64,000 nucleotides of DNA from Minisyncoccia bacterium (GCA_041750655.1 JBGSYZ010000013.1:4769-68768), one strand, 5' to 3'. Counted from the first letter of the stretch, positions 9,776-55,129 are shown. A program made the numbers and translations. The notes: generated by a model from the letters alone, not told the origin.

Positions 9776-9870
9776 ACAAACAGTCTGGGAGACTGTTTGT
9801 GTTGGTTATAACAGTCTCCGAGACCTGTTTGTGTTGGTTACATAGTCTCGTGAATATTTGTGATTATATC
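9776..9870 (+). repeat. 2.5 tandem ~32-nt hairpin + U-tract repeats (terminator-like) on the plus strand
   Basis: ACAGTCTGGGAGACTGTTTGTGTTGGTTA / ACAGTCTCCGAGACCTGTTTGTGTTGGTTA / degenerate third copy. Confidence 0.6.
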
Positions 9871-40245: not shown

Positions 40246-41424
40246 TTACTTGGCGAGCGTTCCCTGTTCATGAAGTGTATGAAAAACAAATGAAGACAGT
40301 AGTATAGCCGTATCTTCGGTCTCAGTTTCTGGGAATACTTTTTTAGTAATTGGAATAACAGTGTGTTCACCACCGGTTGCTCGATGTGAAGCTTTGGTTA
40401 TATATTTTTTAAAAAAAGTCTCCGTGTATCTATCAGTGTGTAGATATATGATTGATGGGACAGTTAACAGGTCCCCCATTGATTTTAAGAGATTGGCAAT
40501 TTCTTCTGTGTATTCTTCAAATACAGATTCAGCAACTATTTGTTGAGCGTCTGTTAGTTGCGGGGGATTATCCTGGAGTAAAGTTTTAACAGACCCAACT
40601 GGCATTTTAAGTTTTGCACTTAAAATTCTAATAATAGTTTGGGAGCCTATCAATGAATGAGCTACTTTGGTTAGTTCTTCGTTTCTCACAATTCCCACTT
40701 CAGTAGCTTCCCCTGTTATATCAATTAAAGTCATTTCTGAAGTTTCGGGAAAAATATCTCGAATAGCTGTGTAATATGTCAGTAAAAAAGTATTTAATAA
40801 TAAAGTGGCTTCAGGAAAAACTTCCTCAGCATGCTTTTTGATTGCTGCCACAATTTTTGATGAAGCAATGCCACTGGAATGAGAAATATATAGCTTATGT
40901 GTTTCTAGATTTCGCGGATCTTTAATCGTGTAGCCATTGGCAGTCATATGGAGTATTTGGTTGGTAATTATTTCTAGACCTTCACGTTTTAGAAATTCAG
41001 TAGTCTTAAGATTATCCATCGATTGCTTCTGGGCGTCTGCCACTAAATTACTTACCAATTTATCAGTGATTTTAAATATTTCTTTATTTTCATACTCGGT
41101 TTGCTGAGTAATTGTATGTGCCCAGGGAGCTGAAATTGAAACTTGAATGTATGAAATATGAGCACTGGGGTCATATTTTTTAAGAGCGGCTCCTCCGGTG
41201 CTGCCTAATACTAAGAATAATCTAAGTAACGCTTCCTCTATAAAACGAGTGGGGTTTTCTGTACTCGCATCTTTAATAACAGCCCATTCACGATGAGTGT
41301 ACAGGACCGGATTGGTTTTAGTGACTATATCTGAAGCTACAATTGAAGCCGCAACACTAGCTGAACCAATGTCTAAAATTATGGCGTATTTACCATCAGG
41401 ACCATGTTTACCTAAACCGAACAT
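40246..41424 (-). CDS. ASKHA-superfamily ATPase-fold protein (Ppx/GppA-like or actin/ParM-like)
   Basis: Phosphate-1 motif AIILDIGSASV near the N-terminus and phosphate-2-like LIDITGEATEVGIV. Confidence 0.4.
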   Translation of the reverse strand: MFGLGKHGPDGKYAIILDIGSASVAASIVASDIVTKTNPVLYTHREWAVIKDASTENPTRFIEEALLRLFLVLGSTGGAALKKYDPSAHISYIQVSISAPWAHTITQQTEYENKEIFKITDKLVSNLVADAQKQSMDNLKTTEFLKREGLEIITNQILHMTANGYTIKDPRNLETHKLYISHSSGIASSKIVAAIKKHAEEVFPEATLLLNTFLLTYYTAIRDIFPETSEMTLIDITGEATEVGIVRNEELTKVAHSLIGSQTIIRILSAKLKMPVGSVKTLLQDNPPQLTDAQQIVAESVFEEYTEEIANLLKSMGDLLTVPSIIYLHTDRYTETFFKKYITKASHRATGGEHTVIPITKKVFPETETEDTAILLSSFVFHTLHEQGTLAK

Positions 41425-41523: not shown

Positions 41524-43392
41524 CTATTCCAAAACTGCTTTAATACGTCGCACACCAGACGAAGATGATTCTTCTTTGATGATTTTGAAAGTACCGTGTA
41601 TGTCTTCAAGTTTTTCTACGTGTGGGCCACCACAAAGTTCTTTAGAGAAAACAGTGCCATCAGTACCAGTCATGGTATACACCTTCACTTCGTCAGGATA
41701 GCGATCCCAAAAACTACCTTCTATGGTTGGATCGTTTTCCGCTCTATCTTTAGCCATGGTTTCCATGGTGACCTTTCCGCCAATTTTTATAGCTTTGTTT
41801 ACAAAGTCTGCTACTTTTTTTAAAGTTTCTGGTTCCACTTTTACTGGATGGGTAAAGTCAAAACGCATTCGTTCGCCGGTAATGTTTGAACCCGCCTGGT
41901 GCACATGACTGCCAAGTTCTGTGCGTAGAGCGGCCAACATTAAATGTGTAGTAGTATGGTATTGAACTACTTTTTCCGAATGATCAGCCAAACCACCTTT
42001 AAATTTTTGTTCAGCTCCAGTTCGAGATTTTTCTTGGTGTTTTTTCATTTCGGCAGCAAAAGATTCTTCGTCAACTTTGATTCCTTTCTCTTTCGCCAGT
42101 TCTTTAGTTAGTTCAAATGGAAACCCATACGTAGTGAACAGAATAAAAGCATCTTCTCCGGTAATATCGTCTTTACTCAACTTTTCAAACTCCTTCATTC
42201 CTTTTTCAAGCGTTTTTCGGAATTGAACTTCTTCCCCTTCAATTGAATCAAGTATCTCGTTTTGTTTGTCCTCAAGGTACGAGTAATGGTTTTTGTAGAC
42301 GATAATAACTCCTTCAGATAACTCTTTAAAGCGGCCAGCCGGAACACCAATTTTGTCTGCGAAGCGCACTGCTCGGCGTAAAAGCCTTCTAACAAAATAA
42401 CCTTGCTCAGTATTACTTGGCAAAATACCGTCAGCCACCATAAACACTGCTCCACGAATATGGTCAGCAATAATGCGAAATTCTTCTGTGTGTTCAGCGT
42501 ATTTTTTACCAGATAAGGCTTCGATCTGAGCCACGACTCCCCCAATCAAATCAATTTTAAAAATATCAGGGTCATTATTGGCTGCGGCAGTAATACGTTC
42601 TAGTCCACCACCAAAATCAACGTTTTGGGCTGGTAACTTGGAAAATGAACCATCTTCTTCTTTTAGATACTCCATAAAAACAGAGTTACCTATTTCTAAA
42701 AACCTTCCACAGTCACAGTTTGGGTGACAATGCTCACCAAATTTTGAATCATGCGGTGTACCAAAATCATAGAATACTTCGCTGTCGGGGCCACCAATTT
42801 CACCAGCGGGCATATTTTCAGGTCTGCCAGAACGACTCCACCAGTTTTTGCTCGAGTCATAATAAAAAATTCGTTCGCCTGGCTTCATACCACGCTGTCC
42901 TCCTTGTGCTTCACTCCCCATTTCACCAACAGCATAGGAAATACCTTTGTCGTCAAATAATTTTTGCCATAGTCCAACTGACTCGTCATCACGAGGCACT
43001 CCTGCTTTCTCGTCACCCTGAAACACAGTTACATAAATACGTCCGGCATCGAGACCGACTTCTTCAGTTAAGAATTCAAAAAACCACGGCAGCTGTTCAC
43101 GTTTAAAATAATCACCAAGTGACCAGTTACCAAGCATTTCGAAAAAAGTTGTATGACGATTGTCTCCTACTTCGTCAATATCTTCTGCCCGGAAACACTT
43201 TTGAGAATCTGCCAAACGAGTACCTTTCGGGTGTGTTTCCCCCATTAGATATGGAATCAATGGCTGCATACCACTGCCGGTAAATAGTGTTGTTGGGTCA
43301 TTTTCTGGCACTAAGGCGGAGCTCGGAATAATAGCGTGACCTTGGGCCTCCATAAATTTCAAATACTTCTCTCTGATTTCATTTCCTGACAT
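41524..43392 (-). CDS. alaS: alanyl-tRNA synthetase, short form (622 aa; lacks the C-terminal C-Ala domain)
   Basis: N-terminal …GHAIIPSSALVPENDPTTLFTGSGMQP…; editing-domain HTTTHLMLAALRTELG. Confidence 0.85.
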   Translation of the reverse strand: MSGNEIREKYLKFMEAQGHAIIPSSALVPENDPTTLFTGSGMQPLIPYLMGETHPKGTRLADSQKCFRAEDIDEVGDNRHTTFFEMLGNWSLGDYFKREQLPWFFEFLTEEVGLDAGRIYVTVFQGDEKAGVPRDDESVGLWQKLFDDKGISYAVGEMGSEAQGGQRGMKPGERIFYYDSSKNWWSRSGRPENMPAGEIGGPDSEVFYDFGTPHDSKFGEHCHPNCDCGRFLEIGNSVFMEYLKEEDGSFSKLPAQNVDFGGGLERITAAANNDPDIFKIDLIGGVVAQIEALSGKKYAEHTEEFRIIADHIRGAVFMVADGILPSNTEQGYFVRRLLRRAVRFADKIGVPAGRFKELSEGVIIVYKNHYSYLEDKQNEILDSIEGEEVQFRKTLEKGMKEFEKLSKDDITGEDAFILFTTYGFPFELTKELAKEKGIKVDEESFAAEMKKHQEKSRTGAEQKFKGGLADHSEKVVQYHTTTHLMLAALRTELGSHVHQAGSNITGERMRFDFTHPVKVEPETLKKVADFVNKAIKIGGKVTMETMAKDRAENDPTIEGSFWDRYPDEVKVYTMTGTDGTVFSKELCGGPHVEKLEDIHGTFKIIKEESSSSGVRRIKAVLE

Positions 43393-45260: not shown

Positions 45261-47147
45261 TTAAGCCTTATTTGTTAGTTTCTCTAACAGCTTTATTTCT
45301 TTTTCTTGTGTTTTGAGGCTTTCCATAAAGGTTTCAACCTTCGTGGTGTTTACGTCAGCATTTTTGAAAATAGTATCCACTGTGTCGCTGCCACCAGCGC
45401 ATAAAAATTCATCAATTTTTTCTATGTAGTCTGGTTCTTTTTTCAAACGCATCGCCATCAGGTTGCTGACCAAAAAACCATATGCATAGGTATACACATA
45501 AAATCCATATCGGATATGAGGAACGTAGACATAGCTATAGCCGTCTTTTTCAGTTACTTCCACAGCCTCTCCGAGGTAAGATTTTAGGTGTTTTTCCATC
45601 ATTTTGGCCAATTCTTCTTTGGTGGCCGCTCCTTCTGTACGGATATGATTATGCATCTCTAGTTCAAAATTAAAGAAGGCTATTTGGCGCTGGACTGTGG
45701 CAATATCACCAGAAATTTTATCGTGAAGAAACAATATTTTATCTTTGTCTGATAACTGGTCAAAGATTTTTTCTGAGACGAATTGTTCAAACAAAGTGCT
45801 AGCAGTCTCAGCAGTTGTTGTAGAAAAATCTTCATACAAGACAGACTGTTTTTTACTCCGCTCGGCATGAACAGCATGACCCATTTCGTGTGCCAAAGTT
45901 TCCAATGACTTGAAATTGTTTGTGTGATTAAGCATCACGTAGGTTGGGAGGCCGTGGGTACTGGCCATAAAAGCCCCACCACGCTTGCCTTTTTTAGGGT
46001 ATACATCGGTTTGACCTTCGGTGATAAGACGGTCAAAAATTTCACCATATTCTTTCTTAATACCATAAAAGGCATCTCGGCAAATTTTAACCGCTTCTGT
46101 AAATGATAGTGGTGACAGCTCTCCAATAGGATCGTATTTGTTTACATAGGGAATAGTTTTTTTGCCATGCAGTGTAGCTTTTATCTGGTAAAACTTTTTA
46201 CTAAGGCTGAAGCCTTTTCTAGATATAGCCGTCACGAGAGCCTCCACTGAAGCCTCATCGTTTTCATACCCCAGTACAGTGGCAGAATATGGTTTAGCGT
46301 ATCCCCTCAGTTCATCACTAACCTTTGAGTGCGTAACAATGGCCGTTAGTTCATGTTCGGCAAACTCAGAAATCTGTACCATCTCATTAAGAATTAAATC
46401 CCACAACACTTGTTTATCTGACCAGTTTTGGTGGTCGAGATTAACCAGAGCTTCATTAATTGAATATTTCTTTTTCTTAAAAGTGATATGACGGTTACCA
46501 ATAATTCTTTCAGTCGCTTCTTCCCACATTCCACAAGAAGTGGTACTCCGCAATGAAAGTATTTTCTCTTCAGGTTCAGTCAGATGATGTTTAGCTTTCT
46601 TAAAAATAAATTCAAGTGAATACCGATATTTTCGTAAAAGTGGGTCATTTAAAAACTTCTTTTGTTGATTTTTTGGTATGGTACCAATCTTTAAACTAAA
46701 AAAAGTCAGTTCATTTGAAAGTTTCGTAAAGCGTTCAGAAAAAATATTATTTTTTTTGTTTGCAACTGTATCTTTTGTGTCTAGTGTTGAACGAAAACCA
46801 AAATAACGGGAAATTTTACTAGCTTCGGTGAGGTGACATAACTTTTCGTACTCCTGGTACGCTAAAAATAATTTCTTGGCTGAGGCGGTAAAATCTTTAT
46901 GGCGATACTTTTTAGCAAAGGCCAAATATGCCTTCTCAATTTTTGCTGCATCTTTTTCTATCTGGGGGTCTTTTTCTGATTTATAATAGTGTTTTTCTAG
47001 GTTCCACTCGGTCTGAATCGTATCTAATTTTGGCAATTTCTGCGTTGGTGTATAGACAAATTTAGTAGTCTTCTTTTGTTTTTTTGACATCAGCAATAAA
47101 GTTCTTATATTCAGTAAATACGTTGTTGAATTCGGCCAGTATCTCAC
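45261..47147 (-). CDS. pepF: oligoendopeptidase F (M3B)
   Basis: Zinc motif LAHEMGHAVH; ~600 aa. The true start is probably the internal MSKKQKK… methionine. Confidence 0.85.
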   Translation of the reverse strand: MRYWPNSTTYLLNIRTLLLMSKKQKKTTKFVYTPTQKLPKLDTIQTEWNLEKHYYKSEKDPQIEKDAAKIEKAYLAFAKKYRHKDFTASAKKLFLAYQEYEKLCHLTEASKISRYFGFRSTLDTKDTVANKKNNIFSERFTKLSNELTFFSLKIGTIPKNQQKKFLNDPLLRKYRYSLEFIFKKAKHHLTEPEEKILSLRSTTSCGMWEEATERIIGNRHITFKKKKYSINEALVNLDHQNWSDKQVLWDLILNEMVQISEFAEHELTAIVTHSKVSDELRGYAKPYSATVLGYENDEASVEALVTAISRKGFSLSKKFYQIKATLHGKKTIPYVNKYDPIGELSPLSFTEAVKICRDAFYGIKKEYGEIFDRLITEGQTDVYPKKGKRGGAFMASTHGLPTYVMLNHTNNFKSLETLAHEMGHAVHAERSKKQSVLYEDFSTTTAETASTLFEQFVSEKIFDQLSDKDKILFLHDKISGDIATVQRQIAFFNFELEMHNHIRTEGAATKEELAKMMEKHLKSYLGEAVEVTEKDGYSYVYVPHIRYGFYVYTYAYGFLVSNLMAMRLKKEPDYIEKIDEFLCAGGSDTVDTIFKNADVNTTKVETFMESLKTQEKEIKLLEKLTNKA

Positions 47148-47661
47148 TCTTGAGGCGTTTATTCAAGACATTTGATACTTCTTGATAGGCAAATATACGT
47201 TCTTCTAACTTGCCACCAAAATTGGCCACAAACTTTGAGTGATCGTCGTAGTAATCTTCCACCATAGTGCGCATGTTGTGGATTTTGTCGGCCGCACACA
47301 CAATAAGAGCTTCATGGGGAGCAGTTTTGAGTTGTTCTACGTAGACATTTTTTTTCTTTTTCCAGATGGTTTTGCCTCCATCAGATTCGGTTTGCGGTTC
47401 GGATAAGGCTTCCACAATATCGCGCACTGGGCCACCAAAATCTTCCTGCAGCTCCTCGGCCGTATAGTCTGTATCTTCTATGGTGTCGTGTAAAAGAGCA
47501 GCACAGATTGTGTCTTCGTCGTTGGTGTAGTCTGAAACGATCATGGCTACTGAAACTAAATGACTAATCACCGGGAACGGCATGTCGCCTTTCCGGACCT
47601 GGTCTTTGTGGAGTACAGCGGCTGCTCTGATAGCTTGCTCTATTTTATGTGTGTAGGACAT
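47062..47661 (-). CDS. HD-domain protein resembling the (p)ppGpp-hydrolase domain of RelA/SpoT (small alarmone hydrolase-like)
   Basis: H…HLVSVAMIV…AALLHDTIEDT matches the SpoT HD motif HP…AALLHDVIEDT. Confidence 0.65.
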   Translation of the reverse strand: MSYTHKIEQAIRAAAVLHKDQVRKGDMPFPVISHLVSVAMIVSDYTNDEDTICAALLHDTIEDTDYTAEELQEDFGGPVRDIVEALSEPQTESDGGKTIWKKKKNVYVEQLKTAPHEALIVCAADKIHNMRTMVEDYYDDHSKFVANFGGKLEERIFAYQEVSNVLNKRLKSEILAEFNNVFTEYKNFIADVKKTKEDY

Positions 47662-47703
47662 GTATTTTTTATTTCTGTTTTTGGAATACTTGCTGGAATT
47701 AAT

Positions 47704-48006
47704 TTATTTCAACATTTGATTCATTAGCTCTGCAATTTCTGAATTTTTTGACTGTTCCTCTTCCATAGCACGTTGTAAATCTTGGTTGGCCACAGCTAGT
47801 TTTTCTTGCTCTTTTGCTAAATCTTGCTGGGCTGTGTTAAACCGATCCTGTTCACGTTGAAGCTGTTTTTGAATATTTTCAACCTCGTGTTGAGCTCGCT
47901 CAACATCTTGTGCAAATCTTTTCTGGTTATGTTCAATGTTCTCACGGCTTCGTTGTAGTCGTGTAAGTTCACTTTTAGCTCTTTCAATGTCTCTTTGAAT
48001 ATCCAT
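47704..48006 (-). CDS. 100-aa all-coiled-coil protein (hypothetical)
   Basis: Heptad-rich, Gln/Glu/Arg-rich; no other features. Confidence 0.4.
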   Translation of the reverse strand: MDIQRDIERAKSELTRLQRSRENIEHNQKRFAQDVERAQHEVENIQKQLQREQDRFNTAQQDLAKEQEKLAVANQDLQRAMEEEQSKNSEIAELMNQMLK

Positions 48007-48008
48007 AA

Positions 48009-48275
48009 TTATAATAAATTAACTCCTTCGTTCAGTAATATAGCACGCTTTTTTTTGACTCCTCCCCTGTTGTAGCCACCCAATCCTCCATCGCTACGAA
48101 TTACTCTATGGCAGGGTACTTCTAAGTCAAAATTTGCCGCCATTATATTAGCGACTGCTCGGGCCGCTTTTTTGTTGCCGGCTTTAGCGGCTACTTCCTT
48201 ATACGTCATGGTTTTTCCTTTGGGAATTTTTCTGACCACCGCTTTCACTTTGTCTGAAAAATTATTTTTTGGCAT
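48009..48275 (-). CDS. stand-alone MGMT C-terminal (alkylguanine-DNA alkyltransferase DNA-binding) domain protein with active-site Cys
   Basis: PCHRVIRSDGGLGGY active-site motif; 88 aa, no N-terminal domain. Confidence 0.75.
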   Translation of the reverse strand: MPKNNFSDKVKAVVRKIPKGKTMTYKEVAAKAGNKKAARAVANIMAANFDLEVPCHRVIRSDGGLGGYNRGGVKKKRAILLNEGVNLL

Positions 48276-49137
48276 ATTTAGTTTTTAAATTAGCAATGGC
48301 ATCTTCTGTAGTATCTTCACTTTTTTCATTCTTCTTGTGAATATTTAGCTTATGCAGATTAAGTAATTTTTTACCAGCCGCTTCGCGATAGGGACAATAT
48401 TCGCAGTTTGATCCTGATTCAGGTATTTCTTCCTTTTCCAAACAGTCCACTATTTTATCTAGAGTCGGTTCTATCCAATCTGTTTCAACTTCAACTGGCA
48501 CTAGTGTGGTTTCAAAGACTAATGTATCGTCAAAACCCACCTCGTCTTTACTGGCGTTGGCATATACCAAATAACCCGTATCTTCAACCTTAAAGCCGTT
48601 TTTTTCTAATAACCATTTATACACACCCAGTTGTCGTTTATATTGTTGATCCCATGGACTATCAGTCAGTTGCGTAATAGAACCCTCTTTTGAAGTAGAT
48701 TTGTAATCTACAATAATTAATTTGCCTTCCGGGGTAATCCAAATATCATCAACTGCTCCAGATACTATGAGACCCGTTTCTGTATCTTTGTACTCGATAC
48801 CTTCAAAGTTTTCTCGCCACGTATCCATGTTTTTATGTTGAAACGGTATGGCATTAATTTTGTACTTAACCATTACTGGATGAGGTGTACCAGCAGCTCG
48901 ATGGACATCAAATTCCTTTTTAAAAAGTTCATCTACAGCTATATTTAAATTAAACGAGGGGAAACCCGGTCGTTTGGTGCCTAGTTTGTTGTCTATATAA
49001 AAGCAGCGAGGACACTCGATAAAAAAATCCAATTTTGAACGAGAAAGGCGCCATTTGGCTCCACCATAATTCCACTCAGCACTTCGGTTAGGGTTGTATC
49101 TTTTTATATATTCAGCCATATAGTAATAGTATAGCAA
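48262..49137 (-). CDS. PD-(D/E)xK nuclease, Cas4/RecB-like with Fe-S cysteine pairs
   Basis: N-terminal CPRCFY; core GAVDDIW…IVDYKST (D…D-x-K); C-terminal CEYCPYR. Confidence 0.7.
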   Translation of the reverse strand: MLYYYYMAEYIKRYNPNRSAEWNYGGAKWRLSRSKLDFFIECPRCFYIDNKLGTKRPGFPSFNLNIAVDELFKKEFDVHRAAGTPHPVMVKYKINAIPFQHKNMDTWRENFEGIEYKDTETGLIVSGAVDDIWITPEGKLIIVDYKSTSKEGSITQLTDSPWDQQYKRQLGVYKWLLEKNGFKVEDTGYLVYANASKDEVGFDDTLVFETTLVPVEVETDWIEPTLDKIVDCLEKEEIPESGSNCEYCPYREAAGKKLLNLHKLNIHKKNEKSEDTTEDAIANLKTKYAKK

Positions 49138-49162
49138 AAGCGGCTCCCGATGGGAGCCGCTT
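49136..49162 (-). terminator. intrinsic terminator
   Basis: AAGCGGCTCCC-GAT-GGGAGCCGCTT with an A/T-run on each side. Confidence 0.6.
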
Positions 49163-49180
49163 TGTGCTTACAATAGGCTA

Positions 49181-49750
49181 TTATTCAGCTTTAAAGGTGG
49201 TCAATACACCATCGATTTGCTTATCTCCAGCTGGATCAAAGAAAAGTCCGCCATTAGTGTTTACAGCACCATCTTCGGTGAAGAAAACGACTGCGTACTC
49301 TTTACCAGCTTCTGTTCCTCTTAGAAGTTCAACTTCTTTAGGAATAAGACCTTGGCTTTGACTGTAACGAGCGGCACCAAGAATACCACCAACATTCTCT
49401 CCGTCGTAATCACGAACTGCTACCCAACCTTCAGCTGTGGGAAATTCAGCACTAGCTAACGCAACTACAGTTCCAGCTGGTTGCCCATTTACGCTAATTG
49501 CACCATCACCAGTTGGTAGTACTGGTACAGAAACAACTTCATTAGCACTAGTATCGGTAGTATTAACATTTGTATTGTTGGTTCTATCAGCCGTAGCTGG
49601 TTGTTCGGTGTTTGTATCGCTTGGGGTATCGTCCATCTCATCAGCCGGTGTTGGAGAAGAGAAAACCCACACTAAAAGACCACCAATAAGTAAACCGGCA
49701 ATAAAGGCGACTACTGTTTTTTGTCCCTCTTGCTTTTCTTGTTCTGACAT
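49181..49750 (-). CDS. membrane-anchored (N-terminal TM) protein with a Thr/Asn/Asp-rich low-complexity linker and C-terminal domain (hypothetical)
   Basis: TM LIGGLLVWVF; linker TPADEMDDTPSDTNTEQPATADRTNNTNVNTTDTS. Confidence 0.45.
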   Translation of the reverse strand: MSEQEKQEGQKTVVAFIAGLLIGGLLVWVFSSPTPADEMDDTPSDTNTEQPATADRTNNTNVNTTDTSANEVVSVPVLPTGDGAISVNGQPAGTVVALASAEFPTAEGWVAVRDYDGENVGGILGAARYSQSQGLIPKEVELLRGTEAGKEYAVVFFTEDGAVNTNGGLFFDPAGDKQIDGVLTTFKAE

Positions 49751-49802
49751 ATCTACAAAAATTTGGATAAACCGCTAATATGCTGGCATTATAACACCAT
49801 AT

Positions 49803-50633
49803 CTATTGGTTGCAGAGTTGACGAGCCTCAGATAGTACGGTGTCTATTTTTTTTGGAGAAATTCCAACAGTATTCAAAATATGTGGTTTTTTAAGGATTT
49901 CTCGACACAAAACAACCCCATTTCGTAATAACTCAACCTTGTCTTTTTGAGAAAGTGAAGCCAGGGCAGTAATTGGGAAAATGCGCGCCCGTTCTATGCG
50001 ATCTTGGAGATTGTTATTTTTAGGATAACTCCAACTTAAGAGTGATAAACCAGCACACTCGGCGTATTTCTCTGCAGCAGAGGTAAATTTTGTGTTGGTT
50101 ACTAAAAGCAAATTTTTAATACCACACACATCTTGCCGGCAGATCTTTTGGTCACGTAAATCTAACAATCGAGCATAGGTATACAGTGCTACTTGTAAAT
50201 CTGATTTAACACCTGGTGTGGAATGAAACTTAGCTTCAACCACAAAACTGTCTGTATCATTGTACGCAGCTACATCTAACTCATGGGTAGCACATTTCCC
50301 TTTTAGTTCTACTCGAGTGTGAGTTGTATACCCTTCGGCCTGAAAAAGTTTTGCTAAAAAATCTTCAAACGGGAAACCAGTTGGCCCTAGACCAAATAAG
50401 GCACGGCGAAGAGAATAACGAGCAGCCAAAGGACTTTCACTAGAACGTAGTAATTCAAAGGCTTTTCGGTAAATTGCTTGGGTGGTTATTCCATTAAACA
50501 ACGATGACTGTACTTCAAGTACAATAGAATTTATTTCTTGGTTAGATGCTCCGGCTCTACGTAGAGAGCGTTTCAGTTTACTTACTTCAAACTTTTCACC
50601 ACTACCATCTGCTTTCGTTACGTAAATAGACAT
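49803..50633 (-). CDS. ATP-cone domain fused to a restriction-endonuclease-fold (Mrr-cat-like PD-(D/E)xK) domain
   Basis: N-terminal MSIYVTKADGSGEKFEVSKLKRSLRRAGAS (ATP-cone pattern); C-terminal …HELDVAAYNDTDSFVVEAKF… (D…E-x-K). Confidence 0.6.
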   Translation of the reverse strand: MSIYVTKADGSGEKFEVSKLKRSLRRAGASNQEINSIVLEVQSSLFNGITTQAIYRKAFELLRSSESPLAARYSLRRALFGLGPTGFPFEDFLAKLFQAEGYTTHTRVELKGKCATHELDVAAYNDTDSFVVEAKFHSTPGVKSDLQVALYTYARLLDLRDQKICRQDVCGIKNLLLVTNTKFTSAAEKYAECAGLSLLSWSYPKNNNLQDRIERARIFPITALASLSQKDKVELLRNGVVLCREILKKPHILNTVGISPKKIDTVLSEARQLCNQ

Positions 50634-50642
50634 GTATATTTG

Positions 50643-51710
50643 TTATTGCACTATAATACCACCACCGAGACATATATCTCCCTGGTAGCACACACACGAC
50701 TGACCGACAGCGTAGGCCTCAATAGTATCTATAGCAACTAACGAGATGTTTGTTTCAGTTATTGAAGCTACTTCCATTGAAAACGGTTGCTGTCGATAGC
50801 GAGTTTGTATTTCGACTGTATCCCCCACTTTTGGTCGGTTGCGTATCCAGTTTGTGTAGTGCAGATTAATTGTGTTGTTGGCTGTCACCATTGGTTTGTG
50901 TACCGACACAGTTATGGTGTTTTCACTAATATTTTTATCAATTATATAGTGTGGGGTATTAGTGGGGTTGATAGTTTTGATAGTAAATCCATGTCTTTGG
51001 CCTACCGTATAAATAATACTACCTTCATGCGTACCAATAACATTACCTTTTTTATCTAATACATCGCCCGGAATTAAGTCTATATAATGACTAAGAAACT
51101 CTTTTATATCAATCTGCCCCAGGAAACATATTCCTTGACTGTCTTTCTTTTCGCTGGTCAGGAGGCCGGCTGCGCCGGCCTCCTTTCGAATCATCTCTTT
51201 AGTCGTATCTCCTACCGGCAACAAAACATGCTTAAGTTGCTCCTGAGTCAGAGTCCATAAGAAATAACTTTGGTCTTTGTTAATATCAATCCCTCTCGTA
51301 AGCTCAAAACCAGCGTCAGTTGCAATATTCTGCGCATAATGGCCGGTTGCTATGTAGTCGGCACCCTTTTCTAATGCAAACTTTAAAAAAGCGCCGAATT
51401 TTACTTCCTTGTTGCATAAGACGTCTGGGTTAGGTGTTCGTCCGGCTTTGTATTCTTCAATAAAATAGTTGGCTACTTCGTCACGATAAGCTGCTTCAGC
51501 GTCACAGGTGAGAAATGGAATATCAAGTTTGGCTGCCACTCGCATGGCATCGAGGCGTTCTTGCTCCCAGTTACACACCAACCACTCTGGATGCCAGACT
51601 TTGATGAATACCCCGACTACGTTGAAGCCGCGCGCCGTCAGGCGCGCGGCCGCCACTGAGGAATCCACTCCTCCAGATAGTCCAACAAATACTGTTTTTT
51701 TATCCTTCAC
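50643..51710 (-). CDS. mnmA: tRNA 2-thiouridylase MnmA
   Basis: PP-loop FVGLSGGVDSSVAA; 355 aa. Confidence 0.9.
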   Translation of the reverse strand: MKDKKTVFVGLSGGVDSSVAAARLTARGFNVVGVFIKVWHPEWLVCNWEQERLDAMRVAAKLDIPFLTCDAEAAYRDEVANYFIEEYKAGRTPNPDVLCNKEVKFGAFLKFALEKGADYIATGHYAQNIATDAGFELTRGIDINKDQSYFLWTLTQEQLKHVLLPVGDTTKEMIRKEAGAAGLLTSEKKDSQGICFLGQIDIKEFLSHYIDLIPGDVLDKKGNVIGTHEGSIIYTVGQRHGFTIKTINPTNTPHYIIDKNISENTITVSVHKPMVTANNTINLHYTNWIRNRPKVGDTVEIQTRYRQQPFSMEVASITETNISLVAIDTIEAYAVGQSCVCYQGDICLGGGIIVQ

Positions 51711-52755: not shown

Positions 52756-54036
52756 TTAAATTGGTAAGTTGCCAGGGGCTTCACTGCGTAGTGAACCAAC
52801 ACGACGAACGTTACCACTGGTAACAACTGCACCCGGTAAGTGAAATATTGTTGCTAGTTCTTCTGTGGTAAGCACCATACCAGTATCTTTTTTATGGCGT
52901 TCTGTGTACGATCGTCTTTTCATATTTTCGATTTCTTCCTTTTTCCATCTTTTGGTAGTTTGTCCTTTTCTATCTTGCCACCATGGCCACGGAGTGTTGG
53001 TATCCCAGGTGATACCAATCATATTTCTTGATAAATCATCAGAGGAACGCAAAATAGAAGCCAAGGTTCCAATTCGTCCACCGTTGAAGGCTTCTTCTGT
53101 AGCTAGATACGTACCTTGGATTTTCGCATCAAACGCATACTTTGAAACACTTCGTTCTAAGCTGGCAATCATATCTCGTTCACCATCAGTGAGTTGTGGA
53201 GGGCCGCCATTTTCACCATTTCGTTCTTTAGCTTCAGAAATGATTTTTTTGATTTCTGCCTTAACCCCACCTTTCCAATCAGATTTTGCCTTAAGACTAC
53301 CAGATTTAAAATCATACGATCGATTGGCTTTTATTAAAATTTGCACCCACATATGCTCGTTTGGTCCAAGAGCTGCCAAGCTTTCCAGAGTGACACTGAT
53401 TGGATCTATTTTTTCTTCTTCTTTAGGGTTTTTATCAAGACCATAATCAATATAGGTTTTAATAGGGTACGCATCAGCTTTAGTGAGTTTGTAGTGGAAT
53501 GAGTGTGACCAATAACCAGCACCATCTTTTGGAATCTCAGCAGTATAGTCAACTGGCAACTGACGAACTTCTACGCCAGGGTATTGAGCGTAGAGTTGAG
53601 ACTCAATCATGTTTTTAAACTTTATTTGGGTGTTAATTAAAAAACGAACATGACCGTGAGTAGAAACAAGTTCTAAAGAAAAAGTGGGTGGATGTTTTCC
53701 TTCCCAGTAGGTTTGGATATGGTTATCAGCTCCAGCTTTTTGGTACAGTTGATTTAAGACCAACTCCATTGCTAGCGGTGATTTAAAGATTTCTTGCGGT
53801 AAAATAATTTCTAAGGTTACCCGGGGGACCTTTAGGTCTGCTTGAAATTGTACAAATTCCACCCACTTTTCAAAAAACATGTAAAAGGTGGTGACTGGAA
53901 GCCAAATTGGCATCGTAGCTAAGGCTATAGAAAAAATTAAGCTGGTTTTTATACCGAAATACTCTAGAAAAAGATAGAACCCAAAAAATAGCCCTATCAA
54001 TAATATGAAGACTCCAAGATTTCTACCGATGCTCAT
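52756..54036 (-). CDS. membrane protein (2 N-terminal TM) with a large soluble domain (hypothetical)
   Basis: 426 aa; TMs in the first 55 residues; no Walker or catalytic motifs found. Confidence 0.45.
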   Translation of the reverse strand: MSIGRNLGVFILLIGLFFGFYLFLEYFGIKTSLIFSIALATMPIWLPVTTFYMFFEKWVEFVQFQADLKVPRVTLEIILPQEIFKSPLAMELVLNQLYQKAGADNHIQTYWEGKHPPTFSLELVSTHGHVRFLINTQIKFKNMIESQLYAQYPGVEVRQLPVDYTAEIPKDGAGYWSHSFHYKLTKADAYPIKTYIDYGLDKNPKEEEKIDPISVTLESLAALGPNEHMWVQILIKANRSYDFKSGSLKAKSDWKGGVKAEIKKIISEAKERNGENGGPPQLTDGERDMIASLERSVSKYAFDAKIQGTYLATEEAFNGGRIGTLASILRSSDDLSRNMIGITWDTNTPWPWWQDRKGQTTKRWKKEEIENMKRRSYTERHKKDTGMVLTTEELATIFHLPGAVVTSGNVRRVGSLRSEAPGNLPI

Positions 54037-54103: not shown

Positions 54104-55129
54104 TTATTCAGCCACTATGTACGAACCGTTTGGTAATCGTTTGAATAGTGCAGCATCTTGTAAGTTTACAACTATGGTGTTGTCTTTTACATACCGCTCT
54201 TTACGAACCTTGTCGATGATTTCTTCTCGAGATAGTGGACCGTGCTTTTCTAGGATGTCTCGTAAAACTTCCTTTACAACACCAGCGGAGTAGCCCCATT
54301 CCGACAATGCATAGAGACCACGGCCTACCAATACAAAGCGTTCGTCTTTAATAAGTTCATTGTGAGTGGTGGCAGTGTGAGCTTTCTTGTTAAATAATTC
54401 AGCAATAGTTTCGGCAACTTCCTTGAAGTGCATTGGCGAACCATGTCGCTTTACTGCGAGGTATGCATAATCACGGATTCCCTTTACTCGCACGTTAGGA
54501 CTTGAAGACGGTCCCCACTCACCAAGTGGATTACGACTTATTTCTTTTGAAATCAATAACCACCGCTTTAGAACTTCGTCATCATACTTATTGGCAATAT
54601 CAATGAGGTTCTCACGGAAACGGTGTAGAATTTCTTCCTCAGATACTAGTTCATCTTCGCTTAATGTTTTGTACACACTTTTGAGTGCTTGTTCAACTGA
54701 GTCAGCGATCTTTCGTTCTGTGTACCAACGATGAGTGTACGCTGGGTTTTCTTTACTGCGATAGAAAGGATCTCCAAGAACCAATAAAAAGAAAATGTGA
54801 TTCCGAACAATTGGATCTTTAGTGATTTCTTCAAGCAATACATGTTCAGCAATGACACCACCACCTAAAGCATCTATCGCTTGGTGTAGTTCATCAAACA
54901 CGGCTGTAAACTCTTGGTACACATCAGATTTTTGGATGGATTGAATTCCGTAGTTTTCAATCTGACGCACTCGCTCTCGAGTCACGCCGTAGCTTTGACC
55001 AATAGACTCTAAAGTGTGAATCTGACCATCAGCACCAAGTCCAAAACGACGTTCTAGAACATCGCGGGCTCGGTCTGGCAACGCAGACAACATTTTTTTA
55101 CTAACTTGTTTTGGTTTAAAAGTAATCAT
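54104..55129 (-). CDS. fusion protein: N-terminal sigma70 region-4-like HTH + C-terminal HARE-HTH-like domain
   Basis: LPDRARDVLERRFGL…TLESIGQSYGVTRERVRQIE (sigma region 4.2 pattern); C-terminal MHFKEVAETIAE…RFVLVGRGLYALSEW (HARE-HTH pattern, as in RpoE delta). Confidence 0.5.
   Translation of the reverse strand: MITFKPKQVSKKMLSALPDRARDVLERRFGLGADGQIHTLESIGQSYGVTRERVRQIENYGIQSIQKSDVYQEFTAVFDELHQAIDALGGGVIAEHVLLEEITKDPIVRNHIFFLLVLGDPFYRSKENPAYTHRWYTERKIADSVEQALKSVYKTLSEDELVSEEEILHRFRENLIDIANKYDDEVLKRWLLISKEISRNPLGEWGPSSSPNVRVKGIRDYAYLAVKRHGSPMHFKEVAETIAELFNKKAHTATTHNELIKDERFVLVGRGLYALSEWGYSAGVVKEVLRDILEKHGPLSREEIIDKVRKERYVKDNTIVVNLQDAALFKRLPNGSYIVAE

Follow-up and report, generated by a model that had tools for sequence, protein, structure and literature searches.

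Six consecutive minus-strand genes (positions 47,062-50,633) in a 64,000-nucleotide window of a Minisyncoccia bacterium genome (GCA_041750655.1, JBGSYZ010000013.1:4769-68768; the window is this whole stretch) probably belong to the core chromosome that Paceibacteria/Parcubacteria-type Patescibacteria (CPR) inherit vertically. On this account they would be neither a mobile nor a defence island, and most likely not one machine; they would be separate genome-maintenance and nucleotide-signalling genes lying between mnmA and pepF/alaS, in the long co-directional strings typical of small CPR genomes. A preliminary description of the same DNA had placed all six open reading frames (ORFs) where they are found and had characterized their products as an ATP-cone and restriction-endonuclease (REase)-fold fusion, a secreted or anchored Thr/Asn-rich protein, a stand-alone Cas4/RecB-like nuclease with CxxC...CxxC cysteines, an 88-aa MGMT C-domain with a PCHR motif, a 100-aa coiled coil, and an HD domain of the (p)ppGpp-hydrolase type, all of which hold up in the present analysis. 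It had also regarded the genes as accessory and non-core, a view that their collinear housekeeping synteny does not support (52/52 flanks).

Genomic Context and Composition

Around the block the genes run in the order LeuRS, a σ-like gene, MltG, MnmA, the six genes, PepF, and AlaRS. The tRNA 2-thiouridylase MnmA (50,643-51,710, minus strand; identified by Pfam) and AlaRS (41,524-43,392, minus strand; also by Pfam) serve here only as context, as the upstream and downstream anchors of a collinear block. By Pfam the flanking genes are housekeeping genes (LeuRS, YchF, MltG, MnmA, AlaRS, and PepF), and the remaining genes of the window include aminoacyl-tRNA synthetases, MurG/FtsW/MraY, DnaK/J/GrpE, and RpoA. 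Nearly all genes from 9.9 to 61 kb are co-directional on the minus strand, so the shared strand of the six genes is uninformative. Spacing is tight: MnmA ends 9 nt from the start of the ATP-cone nuclease gene, the Cas4-like and MGMT genes overlap by 14 nt, 2 nt separate the MGMT and coiled-coil genes, and the HD gene overlaps the PepF ORF at its 3' end, these sizes being approximate because starts were taken from the longest ORFs. A deviation of GC content or codon usage, for which the preliminary description suggested a check, is not seen. GC and GC3 of the block fall within ±1.7 SD, codon fit is average or better, and tetranucleotide distance lies at the 10th percentile; composition and codon usage are native to the host.

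Conservation of Gene Order in Patescibacteria

Synteny was assessed in 80 species-representative loci, which are the best-scoring matches and therefore over-represent close relatives. Across Paceibacteria-type Patescibacteria genomes, collinear gene order is conserved over more than 15 kb of housekeeping genes around the six genes. All 52 Patescibacteria loci with enough flank keep σ/HARE, g52756, YceG, MnmA, and the ATP-cone nuclease, while downstream, among 48 Patescibacteria loci, the TM-anchored protein is found in 38, the Cas4-like nuclease in 43, MGMT in 39, the HD hydrolase in 35, and AlaRS in 42. Median ortholog identities of the Cas4-like (69%), MGMT (67%), ATP-cone (58%), and HD (57%) proteins equal the housekeeping level set by the flanking AlaRS (66%), MnmA (61%), and YceG (46%).

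Co-occurrence with the ATP-cone nuclease, a check suggested in the preliminary description, is seen in related genomes. All four detectable partners accompany it in 27/48 Patescibacteria loci, which is compatible with co-transcription and may reflect functional coupling within Paceibacteria; the genes are scattered only outside the Paceibacteria lineage. In distant Patescibacteria the cluster genes drop out independently (patterns 011001, 000001, 001001, and 010001), and outside CPR none of the five partner genes lies within ±8-10 kb of the ATP-cone nuclease (0/97 loci). The six genes were accordingly rejected as a single co-functional operon across lineages, and these independent losses, with the different partners seen outside CPR, also speak against the joint action as a defence or repair island that had been envisaged earlier. 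Unrelated flanking genes are in fact more syntenic (52/52) than the cluster genes themselves (35-43/48).

Defense and Mobility

An anti-phage defence island, raised as a possibility in the preliminary description, would have the ATP-cone nuclease act in abortive infection as an effector gated by nucleotides, with the Cas4-like nuclease, the HD hydrolase, and the other products as accessories. This is very improbable. PADLOC gave no system-level match for the block, only domain-level matches (isolated Cas4 models, Mrr, a ZorD nuclease-domain match at E=5e-4, and coiled-coil noise). No cas genes were found among the annotated ORFs of the window and, as already stated for the surroundings of the Cas4-like gene in the preliminary description, no CRISPR-like array occurs anywhere in its 64 kb. 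For the ATP-cone nuclease no match was obtained among 50,697 phage records and 2 matches among 72,556 plasmid records, and outside CPR it lies with genes of metabolism and stress rather than of defence. Further evidence against a defence island comes from the housekeeping backbone position, which is fixed in every related genome, from housekeeping-level conservation, and from native composition. The window likewise contains no tRNA or Rfam match and no integrase among its annotated ORFs, and the only repeats flanking the block are short pairs of 18-33 nt that match imperfectly (72-89% identity). A mobile or accessory island was rejected on the fixed syntenic position, the native composition, the phage and plasmid counts, and the lack of repeats, tRNA, and integrase.

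The Cas4-like Nuclease and Mini-MGMT

The third gene (48,262-49,137, minus strand) encodes 291 aa from a TTG codon or 285 aa from an ATG at 49,119, the latter being the likely start. Its product exceeds the Pfam gathering thresholds for PDDEXK_1 (55.5 bits) and Cas_Cas4 (24.9 bits), and the motifs CxxC...CxxC, D...DxK, and QxxxY are invariant across orthologs. With a PD-(D/E)xK motif plus QxxxY, four cysteines, a Cas4/Dna2/AddB-like fold, and a location outside cas loci, it belongs with the Cas4/RecB family. The cysteines are arranged 2+2, unlike the 1+3 pattern of canonical Cas4. A CRISPR-associated Cas4 was rejected, as neither cas1/cas2 nor an array adjoins the gene and the protein scores 39.6 bits against the TIGR00372 cas4 equivalog, below the cutoff of 65. 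The closer likeness is to solo-Cas4, already known from CPR, where it is common, vertically inherited, and free of an arms-race signature (Hudaiberdiev et al., 2017; PMC5704561), a further point against defence. Like solo-Cas4, the present protein stands alone, has four conserved cysteines, comes from a CPR genome without CRISPR, is vertically inherited, and is conserved much as housekeeping proteins are; it differs in an N-terminal extension of ~100 aa and in the consistent pairing of its gene with that for mini-MGMT.

The latter, the fourth gene (48,009-48,275, minus strand; 88 aa), encodes a complete DNA_binding_1 domain (101 bits, over the Pfam gathering threshold) with the PCHR acceptor cysteine of Ogt and Ada-C, C55 being invariant in 46 orthologs. 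It scores 77.6 bits against TIGR00589 ogt (cutoff 46.4) and matches Ada-C (PDB 1SFE) at E=1.2e-14. The N-terminal domain of Ogt/MGMT is absent and the alignment to Ada-C/Ogt is confined to their residues ~90-176, so the protein is a minimal variant of the O6-alkylguanine-DNA alkyltransferases. The alkyltransferase-like (ATL) protein 3GVA is matched at E=8e-6, but here, in contrast to ATL proteins, the cysteine is retained.

The Cas4-like and MGMT genes would form a small DNA-repair pair, sometimes joined in other genomes by a family-4 uracil-DNA glycosylase (UDG). The median gap between them is 1.5 nt (≤60 nt in 35/40 loci), they are possibly translationally coupled, and the pair is kept in distant Patescibacteria (L056, L060, L065, and L073). 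This raises a broader alternative, one co-regulated DNA-repair operon in which the block, or at least the ATP-cone nuclease, the Cas4-like nuclease, and mini-MGMT (with or without UDG), acts on damaged DNA and the ATP-cone tunes repair to dNTP/ATP supply. The tight spacing and the retained pair are consistent with such an operon, as are the UDG gene directly after MGMT in L050 and L065 and the position of the repair nuclease NucS as the next structural neighbor, after AF1548, of the ATP-cone nuclease core. It nevertheless appears unlikely. The ATP-cone nuclease occurs without the Cas4-like or MGMT gene in several Patescibacteria loci (L059, L066, L069, and L080) and in each of the 97 loci examined outside CPR, and an unrelated membrane protein gene separates the two nucleases. 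MnmA, MltG, and AlaRS, whose functions are unrelated, show still tighter synteny, which makes adjacency by itself weak evidence in this clade. A loosely organized repair cluster is possible, given the shared nucleic-acid and nucleotide theme and the two genomes with UDG directly after MGMT.

The Membrane-Anchored, Coiled-Coil, and HD Proteins

The second gene (49,181-49,750, minus strand; 189 aa) encodes a protein anchored by a TM helix near its N terminus (aa ~13-30), from which a low-complexity linker rich in T, N, and D leads to a C-terminal domain of ~110 aa; across orthologs only the TM helix and the C-terminal domain are conserved. Neither Pfam nor PADLOC gave a family, and the sole NCBIfam match was a weak one to YidC (15.8 bits against a 600-bit cutoff). 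An ortholog of ~45% identity lies +0.9 kb after the ATP-cone gene in the 38 Patescibacteria loci counted above. The fifth gene (47,704-48,006, minus strand) encodes a charged coiled-coil protein of 100 aa, with generic coiled-coil matches and no family in Pfam, PADLOC, or NCBIfam, and tblastn and phmmer detected homologs in 0/80 loci. An ORF occupies the slot between MGMT and HD in 23/36 loci, mostly of a charged, coiled-coil type and ~75-190 aa; the gene evolves fast and is conserved by position only.

The sixth gene (47,062-47,661, minus strand; 199 aa) is a predicted small alarmone hydrolase (SAH), a stand-alone HD domain of the RelA/SpoT type, that would degrade (p)ppGpp or (p)ppApp. HD_4 is matched at 68.6 bits, over the Pfam gathering threshold, and TIGR00691 partially, in its hydrolase part. 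In the PDB it matches 7QOC (E=8e-25) and 7QOE (E=8e-21) best, both of them stand-alone SAHs, and Mesh1 as well. Like these the protein has a single HD_4 domain of ~200 aa with HDxxED and no synthetase domain, and HD...ED is invariant across orthologs. No alarmone synthetase was seen among the annotated ORFs of the window.

The ATP-Cone Nuclease

The first gene (49,803-50,633, minus strand; 276 aa) encodes an ATP-cone (aa 3-78), an AF1548/Mrr_cat PD-(D/E)xK domain (aa ~86-200), and an AF1548-like HhH-like module (aa ~219-273). In Pfam the ATP-cone (PF03477) scores 34.8 bits against a gathering score of 25.8, and Mrr_cat (31.4 bits) and AF1548-like_C (25.9 bits) also exceed their thresholds. The catalytic motif D120...E133-x-K135 sits on a REase fold and is invariant across orthologs. 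The N-terminal domain has the fold of an ATP-cone, with a β-hairpin and a helical bundle similar to those in the cones of NrdR and ribonucleotide reductases (RNRs), and K7, G10, E13, and K19 are conserved. Arg10 of E. coli NrdA, which contacts the nucleotide phosphates in the NrdA structure, aligns with an alanine that is invariant in the present family. The output differs as well, being a reductase or a Zn-ribbon repressor in RNRs and NrdR and a predicted nuclease here. Mrr_cat and AF1548-like_C are shared with AF1548 (PDB 1Y88), an Archaeoglobus fulgidus structural-genomics protein that lacks both the N-terminal ATP-cone and the CxxxxC-bearing loop (C165...C170) of the present protein. A literature search found no published assay of nuclease activity or substrate for AF1548 or its relatives. 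Compared with the ligand-gated PD-(D/E)xK effectors Can2/Card1 and NucC, the present protein has an ATP-cone in place of CARF/SAVED as its putative sensor, and a housekeeping or metabolic context in place of a CRISPR/CBASS one.

MnmA lies directly upstream of the ATP-cone nuclease in each of the 62 Patescibacteria loci whose sequence extends that far (median gap -1 nt), and the adjacency persists even at 42-48% identity. A tie to tRNA thiolation, with tRNA or RNA, not DNA, as the substrate of the nuclease, would fit this pairing and the RNA-type β-CASP partner, with its RMMBL domain, found outside CPR. Such a tie is nonetheless highly unlikely: MnmA never adjoins the nuclease in Bacteroidota, Chlamydiota, or metagenome loci, and both the REase fold and the HhH-like module at the C terminus are more characteristic of DNA enzymes. 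Invariance is just as complete for the whole upstream block, MltG and the σ-like gene included, so that inertia may account for the pairing.

Outside CPR the ATP-cone nuclease is operon-linked to other enzymes. A β-CASP hydrolase gene adjoins it in 9/17 and in 40/58 loci, the latter count being for Bacteroidota and Chlamydiota, where it follows the nuclease gene, and a nucleoside/NMP-phosphorylase-family (TP-family) gene and a PRPP-synthetase-like (PRS-like) gene lie nearby in 14/36 and 12/36 loci, respectively. We infer an AF1548-type nuclease with an HhH-like nucleic-acid-binding tail, probably switched by ATP/dATP at its ATP-cone, which may act in the regulated turnover or salvage of nucleic acids. 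At least 594 species carry members of the ATP-cone–AF1548 nuclease family; its architecture is annotated, and a literature search found no published function for it. This family is the only part of the locus that merits follow-up.

Chromosomal Setting and Gene Order

The six minus-strand genes at 47062-50633 of the window form a conserved segment of the chromosomal backbone rather than an accessory island. The window itself is a segment of a Patescibacteria (CPR) chromosome and carries mostly housekeeping genes. These include genes for aminoacyl-tRNA synthetases (GluRS, Asp/AsnRS-type, Trp/TyrRS-type, AlaRS, and LeuRS), cell-wall functions (MurG, FtsW, MraY, and a D-Ala-D-Ala carboxypeptidase), and DnaK/DnaJ/GrpE, RpoA, S4, YchF, MltG/YceG, and MnmA. 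Because the minus strand holds nearly all of the region from 9.9 to 61 kb, the run of six consecutive minus-strand genes carries no weight of its own. A relative of the first gene of the block, the ATP-cone nuclease, is carried by at least 594 species, from which 80 species-representative genomic loci were taken, and each gene of the window was scored against these loci by tblastn and profiles. Patescibacteria account for 65 of the 80, all of them from MAGs labeled Paceibacteria, Kaiserbacteria, Nomurabacteria, Parcubacteria, and similar. Gene order in the Patescibacteria loci is collinear, running from a σ70-r4/HARE-HTH protein through a 426-aa protein, YceG, MnmA, and the ATP-cone nuclease to a transmembrane (TM) protein, the Cas4-like nuclease, the mini-MGMT, the HD hydrolase, (PepF), AlaRS, and a 392-aa protein. 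All 52 Patescibacteria loci with enough flank contain the upstream housekeeping genes. The cluster genes are a little less constant (TM 38/48, Cas4-like 43/48, MGMT 39/48, HD 35/48, with AlaRS at 42/48), and these four partners occur jointly in 27 of 48 loci. Measured against the window proteins, median identity reaches 69% for the Cas4-like nuclease, 67% for MGMT, 58% for the ATP-cone nuclease, and 57% for the HD hydrolase, compared with 66% for AlaRS, 61% for MnmA, and 46% for YceG, placing the cluster at the housekeeping level.

Three further proteins of this backbone deserve mention. The σ70-r4/HARE-HTH protein (341 aa, 54104-55129, minus strand) combines σ70 region 4 with HARE-HTH in an unusual σ/δ-like architecture and is the most conserved of the collinear block, at a median of 73% identity among the Paceibacteria loci. 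The 426-aa protein (52756-54036, minus strand) belongs to no Pfam family and is fixed in the backbone (52/52 loci). The 392-aa protein (40246-41424, minus strand), also without a Pfam family, is found after AlaRS in about 40 loci, where its identity is ~31%.

The preliminary description had regarded the block as accessory-looking and as a possible defense or repair island. The deviation in GC or codon usage by which such an origin might be recognized is absent: GC, GC3, codon usage, and tetranucleotides of the block cannot be told apart from those of the remaining window, and tests for foreign origin were negative. Direct or inverted repeats flanking the block amount to short imperfect pairs, and searches of the window recovered no tRNA, Rfam element, integrase, cas gene, or CRISPR-like array, in keeping with the earlier statement that no array lies near the Cas4-like gene. 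A scan of all six proteins with PADLOC matched no defense system, returning isolated domain-level matches only. Homologs of the ATP-cone nuclease are absent from 50,697 phage records and occur on two of 72,556 plasmids. Fixed backbone synteny, native composition, the lack of a PADLOC system, and near-absence from phages and plasmids together lead us to reject an accessory or defense island. The promoter and terminator scan gave a signal no different from that of shuffled sequence and therefore yielded no operon boundaries. The sole tandem repeat of the window, two copies of a 32-nt unit matching at 90% (9779-9840), lies just downstream of an M23 peptidase gene and is unrelated to the block.

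Components of the Block

All six open reading frames were recovered at exactly the positions first proposed for them, and the domains assigned to their products are borne out by Pfam and profile matches and by invariant signature residues; catalytic and signature residues are invariant in comparisons among orthologs. Four of the products belong to known families, namely the ATP-cone/AF1548-type nucleases, solo-Cas4, minimal Ogt, and the small alarmone hydrolases, while the TM and coiled-coil proteins are lineage-specific. The TM protein (189 aa, 49181-49750, minus strand) belongs to no family and appears to consist of a TM anchor at its N terminus, a linker rich in T/N/D, and, toward the C terminus, a conserved domain of ~110 aa. 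The coiled-coil protein (100 aa, 47704-48006, minus strand) has generic coiled-coil matches only. The 88 aa encoded by the minus-strand mini-MGMT gene span the whole MGMT DNA_binding_1 domain (101 bits), PCHR motif included. The HD hydrolase (199 aa, minus strand) carries an HD_4 domain of the RelA/SpoT type, and among solved structures it comes closest to small alarmone hydrolases of the stand-alone kind (7QOC, E=8e-25).

The Cas4-like nuclease (285/291 aa, 48262-49137, minus strand) matches Pfam PDDEXK_1 and Cas_Cas4 and falls below the cutoff of the TIGR00372 cas4 equivalog (39.6 vs. 65). Canonical Cas4 has its cysteines in a 1+3 pattern, whereas the four invariant cysteines of the window protein, candidate ligands of Fe-S or Zn, are arranged as CxxC...CxxC. 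A sequence search of the PDB with this protein gave nothing usable, and a fold search was used instead. Its family comprises more than 7735 matches, named either 'PD-(D/E)XK nuclease family protein' or 'Cas4 (RecB family)'. As a class, this component has been described before: solo-Cas4 occurs often in CPR, including Parcubacteria, Nomurabacteria, and others, where it shows vertical inheritance and selection at the genomic median, with a 'defense or repair' function left undefined (Hudaiberdiev et al., 2017; PMC5704561). An archaeal solo-Cas4 has later been shown to be a metal-dependent dsDNA nuclease of the [4Fe-4S] type, with induction in stationary phase (PMC12501428).

The ATP-cone nuclease (276 aa, 49803-50633, minus strand) is the most distinctive component. 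Its matches to Pfam ATP-cone (34.8 bits), Mrr_cat (31.4 bits), and AF1548-like_C (25.9 bits) all exceed the gathering scores. At E≤1e-5 its family exceeds 3394 sequences among the 90% clusters; at E≤1e-3 there are 1203 clusters of 50% identity, and almost every one of the top 150 is a full-length protein of 270-290 aa. The ATP-cone retains the VxKxxGxxExFxxxK signature, whereas an Ala, invariant throughout the family, stands opposite Arg10 of E. coli NrdA in the alignment, a residue we take to be a phosphate ligand. In its nuclease and C-terminal parts the protein is a homolog of the Archaeoglobus fulgidus structural-genomics protein AF1548 (1Y88; E=1.6e-31), a predicted restriction-endonuclease-fold enzyme with catalytic residues D38/E51/K53 (PMC1821046), which align with the invariant D120/E133/K135 of the ATP-cone nuclease. 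Five cysteines (C114, C165, C170, C193, and C243) are invariant or nearly so and may mark a metal site, C165 and C170 sitting in a loop missing from AF1548. The order of sensor, PD-(D/E)xK nuclease, and HhH supports the earlier suggestion of a nucleotide-gated nuclease, in which the ATP-cone would govern cleavage. The architecture is already annotated in public databases. Literature searches for the ATP-cone/REase fusion, for AF1548 function, and for 'ATP cone domain-containing protein' returned a 2007 GOS prediction only, and no function for the ATP-cone–AF1548 nuclease was found in published work.

Retention and Loss of Individual Genes

Adjacency of the cluster genes in Paceibacteria is real but not readable as functional coupling, since functionally unrelated neighbors adjoin at least as strongly. 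Where the Patescibacteria ATP-cone nuclease is ≤48% identical to the window protein, the partners have been lost independently. The Cas4-like and MGMT genes are kept without the TM and HD genes in loci L056, L060, and L073; MGMT is the sole partner in L055 and the Cas4-like gene in L057; and in L059 and L069 no partner remains and AlaRS lies directly downstream of the ATP-cone nuclease. All five partners and MnmA are absent within 8-10 kb in 15 Bacteroidota/Balneolaceae genome loci, two plasmids, and 80 metagenome loci. Co-occurrence holds in related genomes only as lineage-wide synteny, and a single conserved operon of six genes is not supported, given these independent losses and the lack of partners outside CPR.

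Among sub-pairs of the block, some independent support exists only for the Cas4-like gene and the mini-MGMT gene after it. In the window their reading frames share 14 nt, the gap is ≤60 nt in 35 of 40 loci, the pair persists in several distant Patescibacteria, and in two genomes a family-4 uracil-DNA glycosylase gene directly follows mini-MGMT, at L050:13410-14012 and L065:11859-12503 (Pfam UDG at E values near 1e-33 and 1e-31, respectively). This overlap, close spacing, distant retention, and glycosylase neighbor suggest a small DNA-repair pair.

The coiled-coil protein has no homologs by sequence search of the 80 loci, only positional analogs. The slot between MGMT and HD is occupied by an open reading frame in 23 of 36 Paceibacteria loci (e.g., L007:12967-13236 and L019:12598-12900), mostly encoding highly charged proteins of coiled-coil type, about 75-190 aa, with no detectable similarity to one another. 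The gene therefore appears to be kept by position while diverging fast. At the downstream end of the block, the 3' end of the HD hydrolase gene overlaps the longest PepF reading frame by 86 nt (47062-47147); taking the ATG of PepF from the L001 public gene call shortens this to 29 nt. An overlap of HD with PepF recurs in 17 of 21 loci, which suggests translational coupling or start-codon ambiguity. Taken as a whole, the block is probably best explained as a backbone string of independent maintenance and signaling genes, with a possible Cas4-like and MGMT repair pair within it.

The ATP-Cone Nuclease Outside CPR

Carriers of the widespread ATP-cone–AF1548 nuclease include cultured Bacteroidota, among them Tenacibaculum, Arenibacter, Winogradskyella, Gelidibacter, and Pontibacter. 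Plasmids from two different phyla, one of Pontibacter and one of Criblamydia, share an annotated gene order headed by the ATP cone domain-containing protein and continuing with an MBL fold metallo-hydrolase, a thymidine phosphorylase family protein, and a ribose-phosphate pyrophosphokinase. By Pfam, these neighbors are a β-CASP enzyme with an RMMBL 'RNA specificity' domain, an N-terminally extended Glycos_transf_3 phosphorylase, and a PRPP-synthetase-like (PRS-like) protein, respectively. In 7 of 15 Bacteroidota genome loci and in 40 of 58 metagenome loci with ≥1.5 kb downstream, the gene next to the ATP-cone nuclease on that side is β-CASP; among 36 loci with ≥5 kb, the phosphorylase lies downstream in 14 and the PRS-like gene in 12. 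The co-directional module is found in Bacteroidota and Chlamydiota (L083:1972-6597, L084:5995-10602, and L086-L162, e.g., L089:8001-13000), and no description of it was found in the searchable literature. MBL, thymidine phosphorylase, or PRS partners were sought elsewhere in the window and in the Patescibacteria loci, with none at E<1e-6.

Loci outside CPR (L085-L164) are enriched in recurrent co-directional tandem universal stress proteins, confirmed by Pfam (40 loci), and carry recurrent ORF clusters labeled by sequence reading rather than Pfam as P-type ATPase-like (22), type-II-GAPDH-like (17), 2-hydroxyacid dehydrogenase-like (13), and phosphofructokinase-like (12), along with a conserved 137-aa protein (12); examples of these stress and metabolism neighbors lie at L159:3512-4351, L110:14377-16431, and L128:822-1841. 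The non-CPR loci resemble a gene island for stress, hypoxia, or fermentation, and the setting of the nuclease there is one of stress and energy metabolism, not defense. On account of these neighbors, we favor, as a tentative hypothesis, that the nuclease serves the regulated turnover of nucleic acid or the salvage of nucleotides. CPR bacteria are commonly described as lacking de novo nucleotide synthesis, so such a role would also fit them. In a more specific and likewise speculative proposal, the ATP-cone–AF1548–HhH protein would be a nuclease gated by adenine nucleotides and opening a route of salvage from nucleic acid to nucleotides and pentose. In Bacteroidota and Chlamydiota it would act with the β-CASP, NMP/nucleoside-phosphorylase-family, and PRPP-synthetase-like enzymes within a stress and energy-starvation island, and in CPR the near-core nuclease would meter the breakdown of scavenged or self nucleic acid by the ATP/dATP pool.

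Implications

Long co-directional strings and clade-wide collinearity allow thematic gene runs of the CPR backbone to mimic islands, which calls for caution in genome scans. Among the few functions in genome maintenance and nucleotide signaling that minimal Paceibacteria retain under housekeeping-level constraint are solo-Cas4, minimal Ogt, a small alarmone hydrolase, and the ATP-cone nuclease. The significance of the block lies mainly in the ATP-cone nuclease and in the reproducible β-CASP/phosphorylase/PRS module of cultured bacteria. Cultured Bacteroidota carriers, in which the β-CASP partner is reproducible, are potentially tractable, and if gating is confirmed, the nuclease would represent a new type of output for the ATP-cone sensor.
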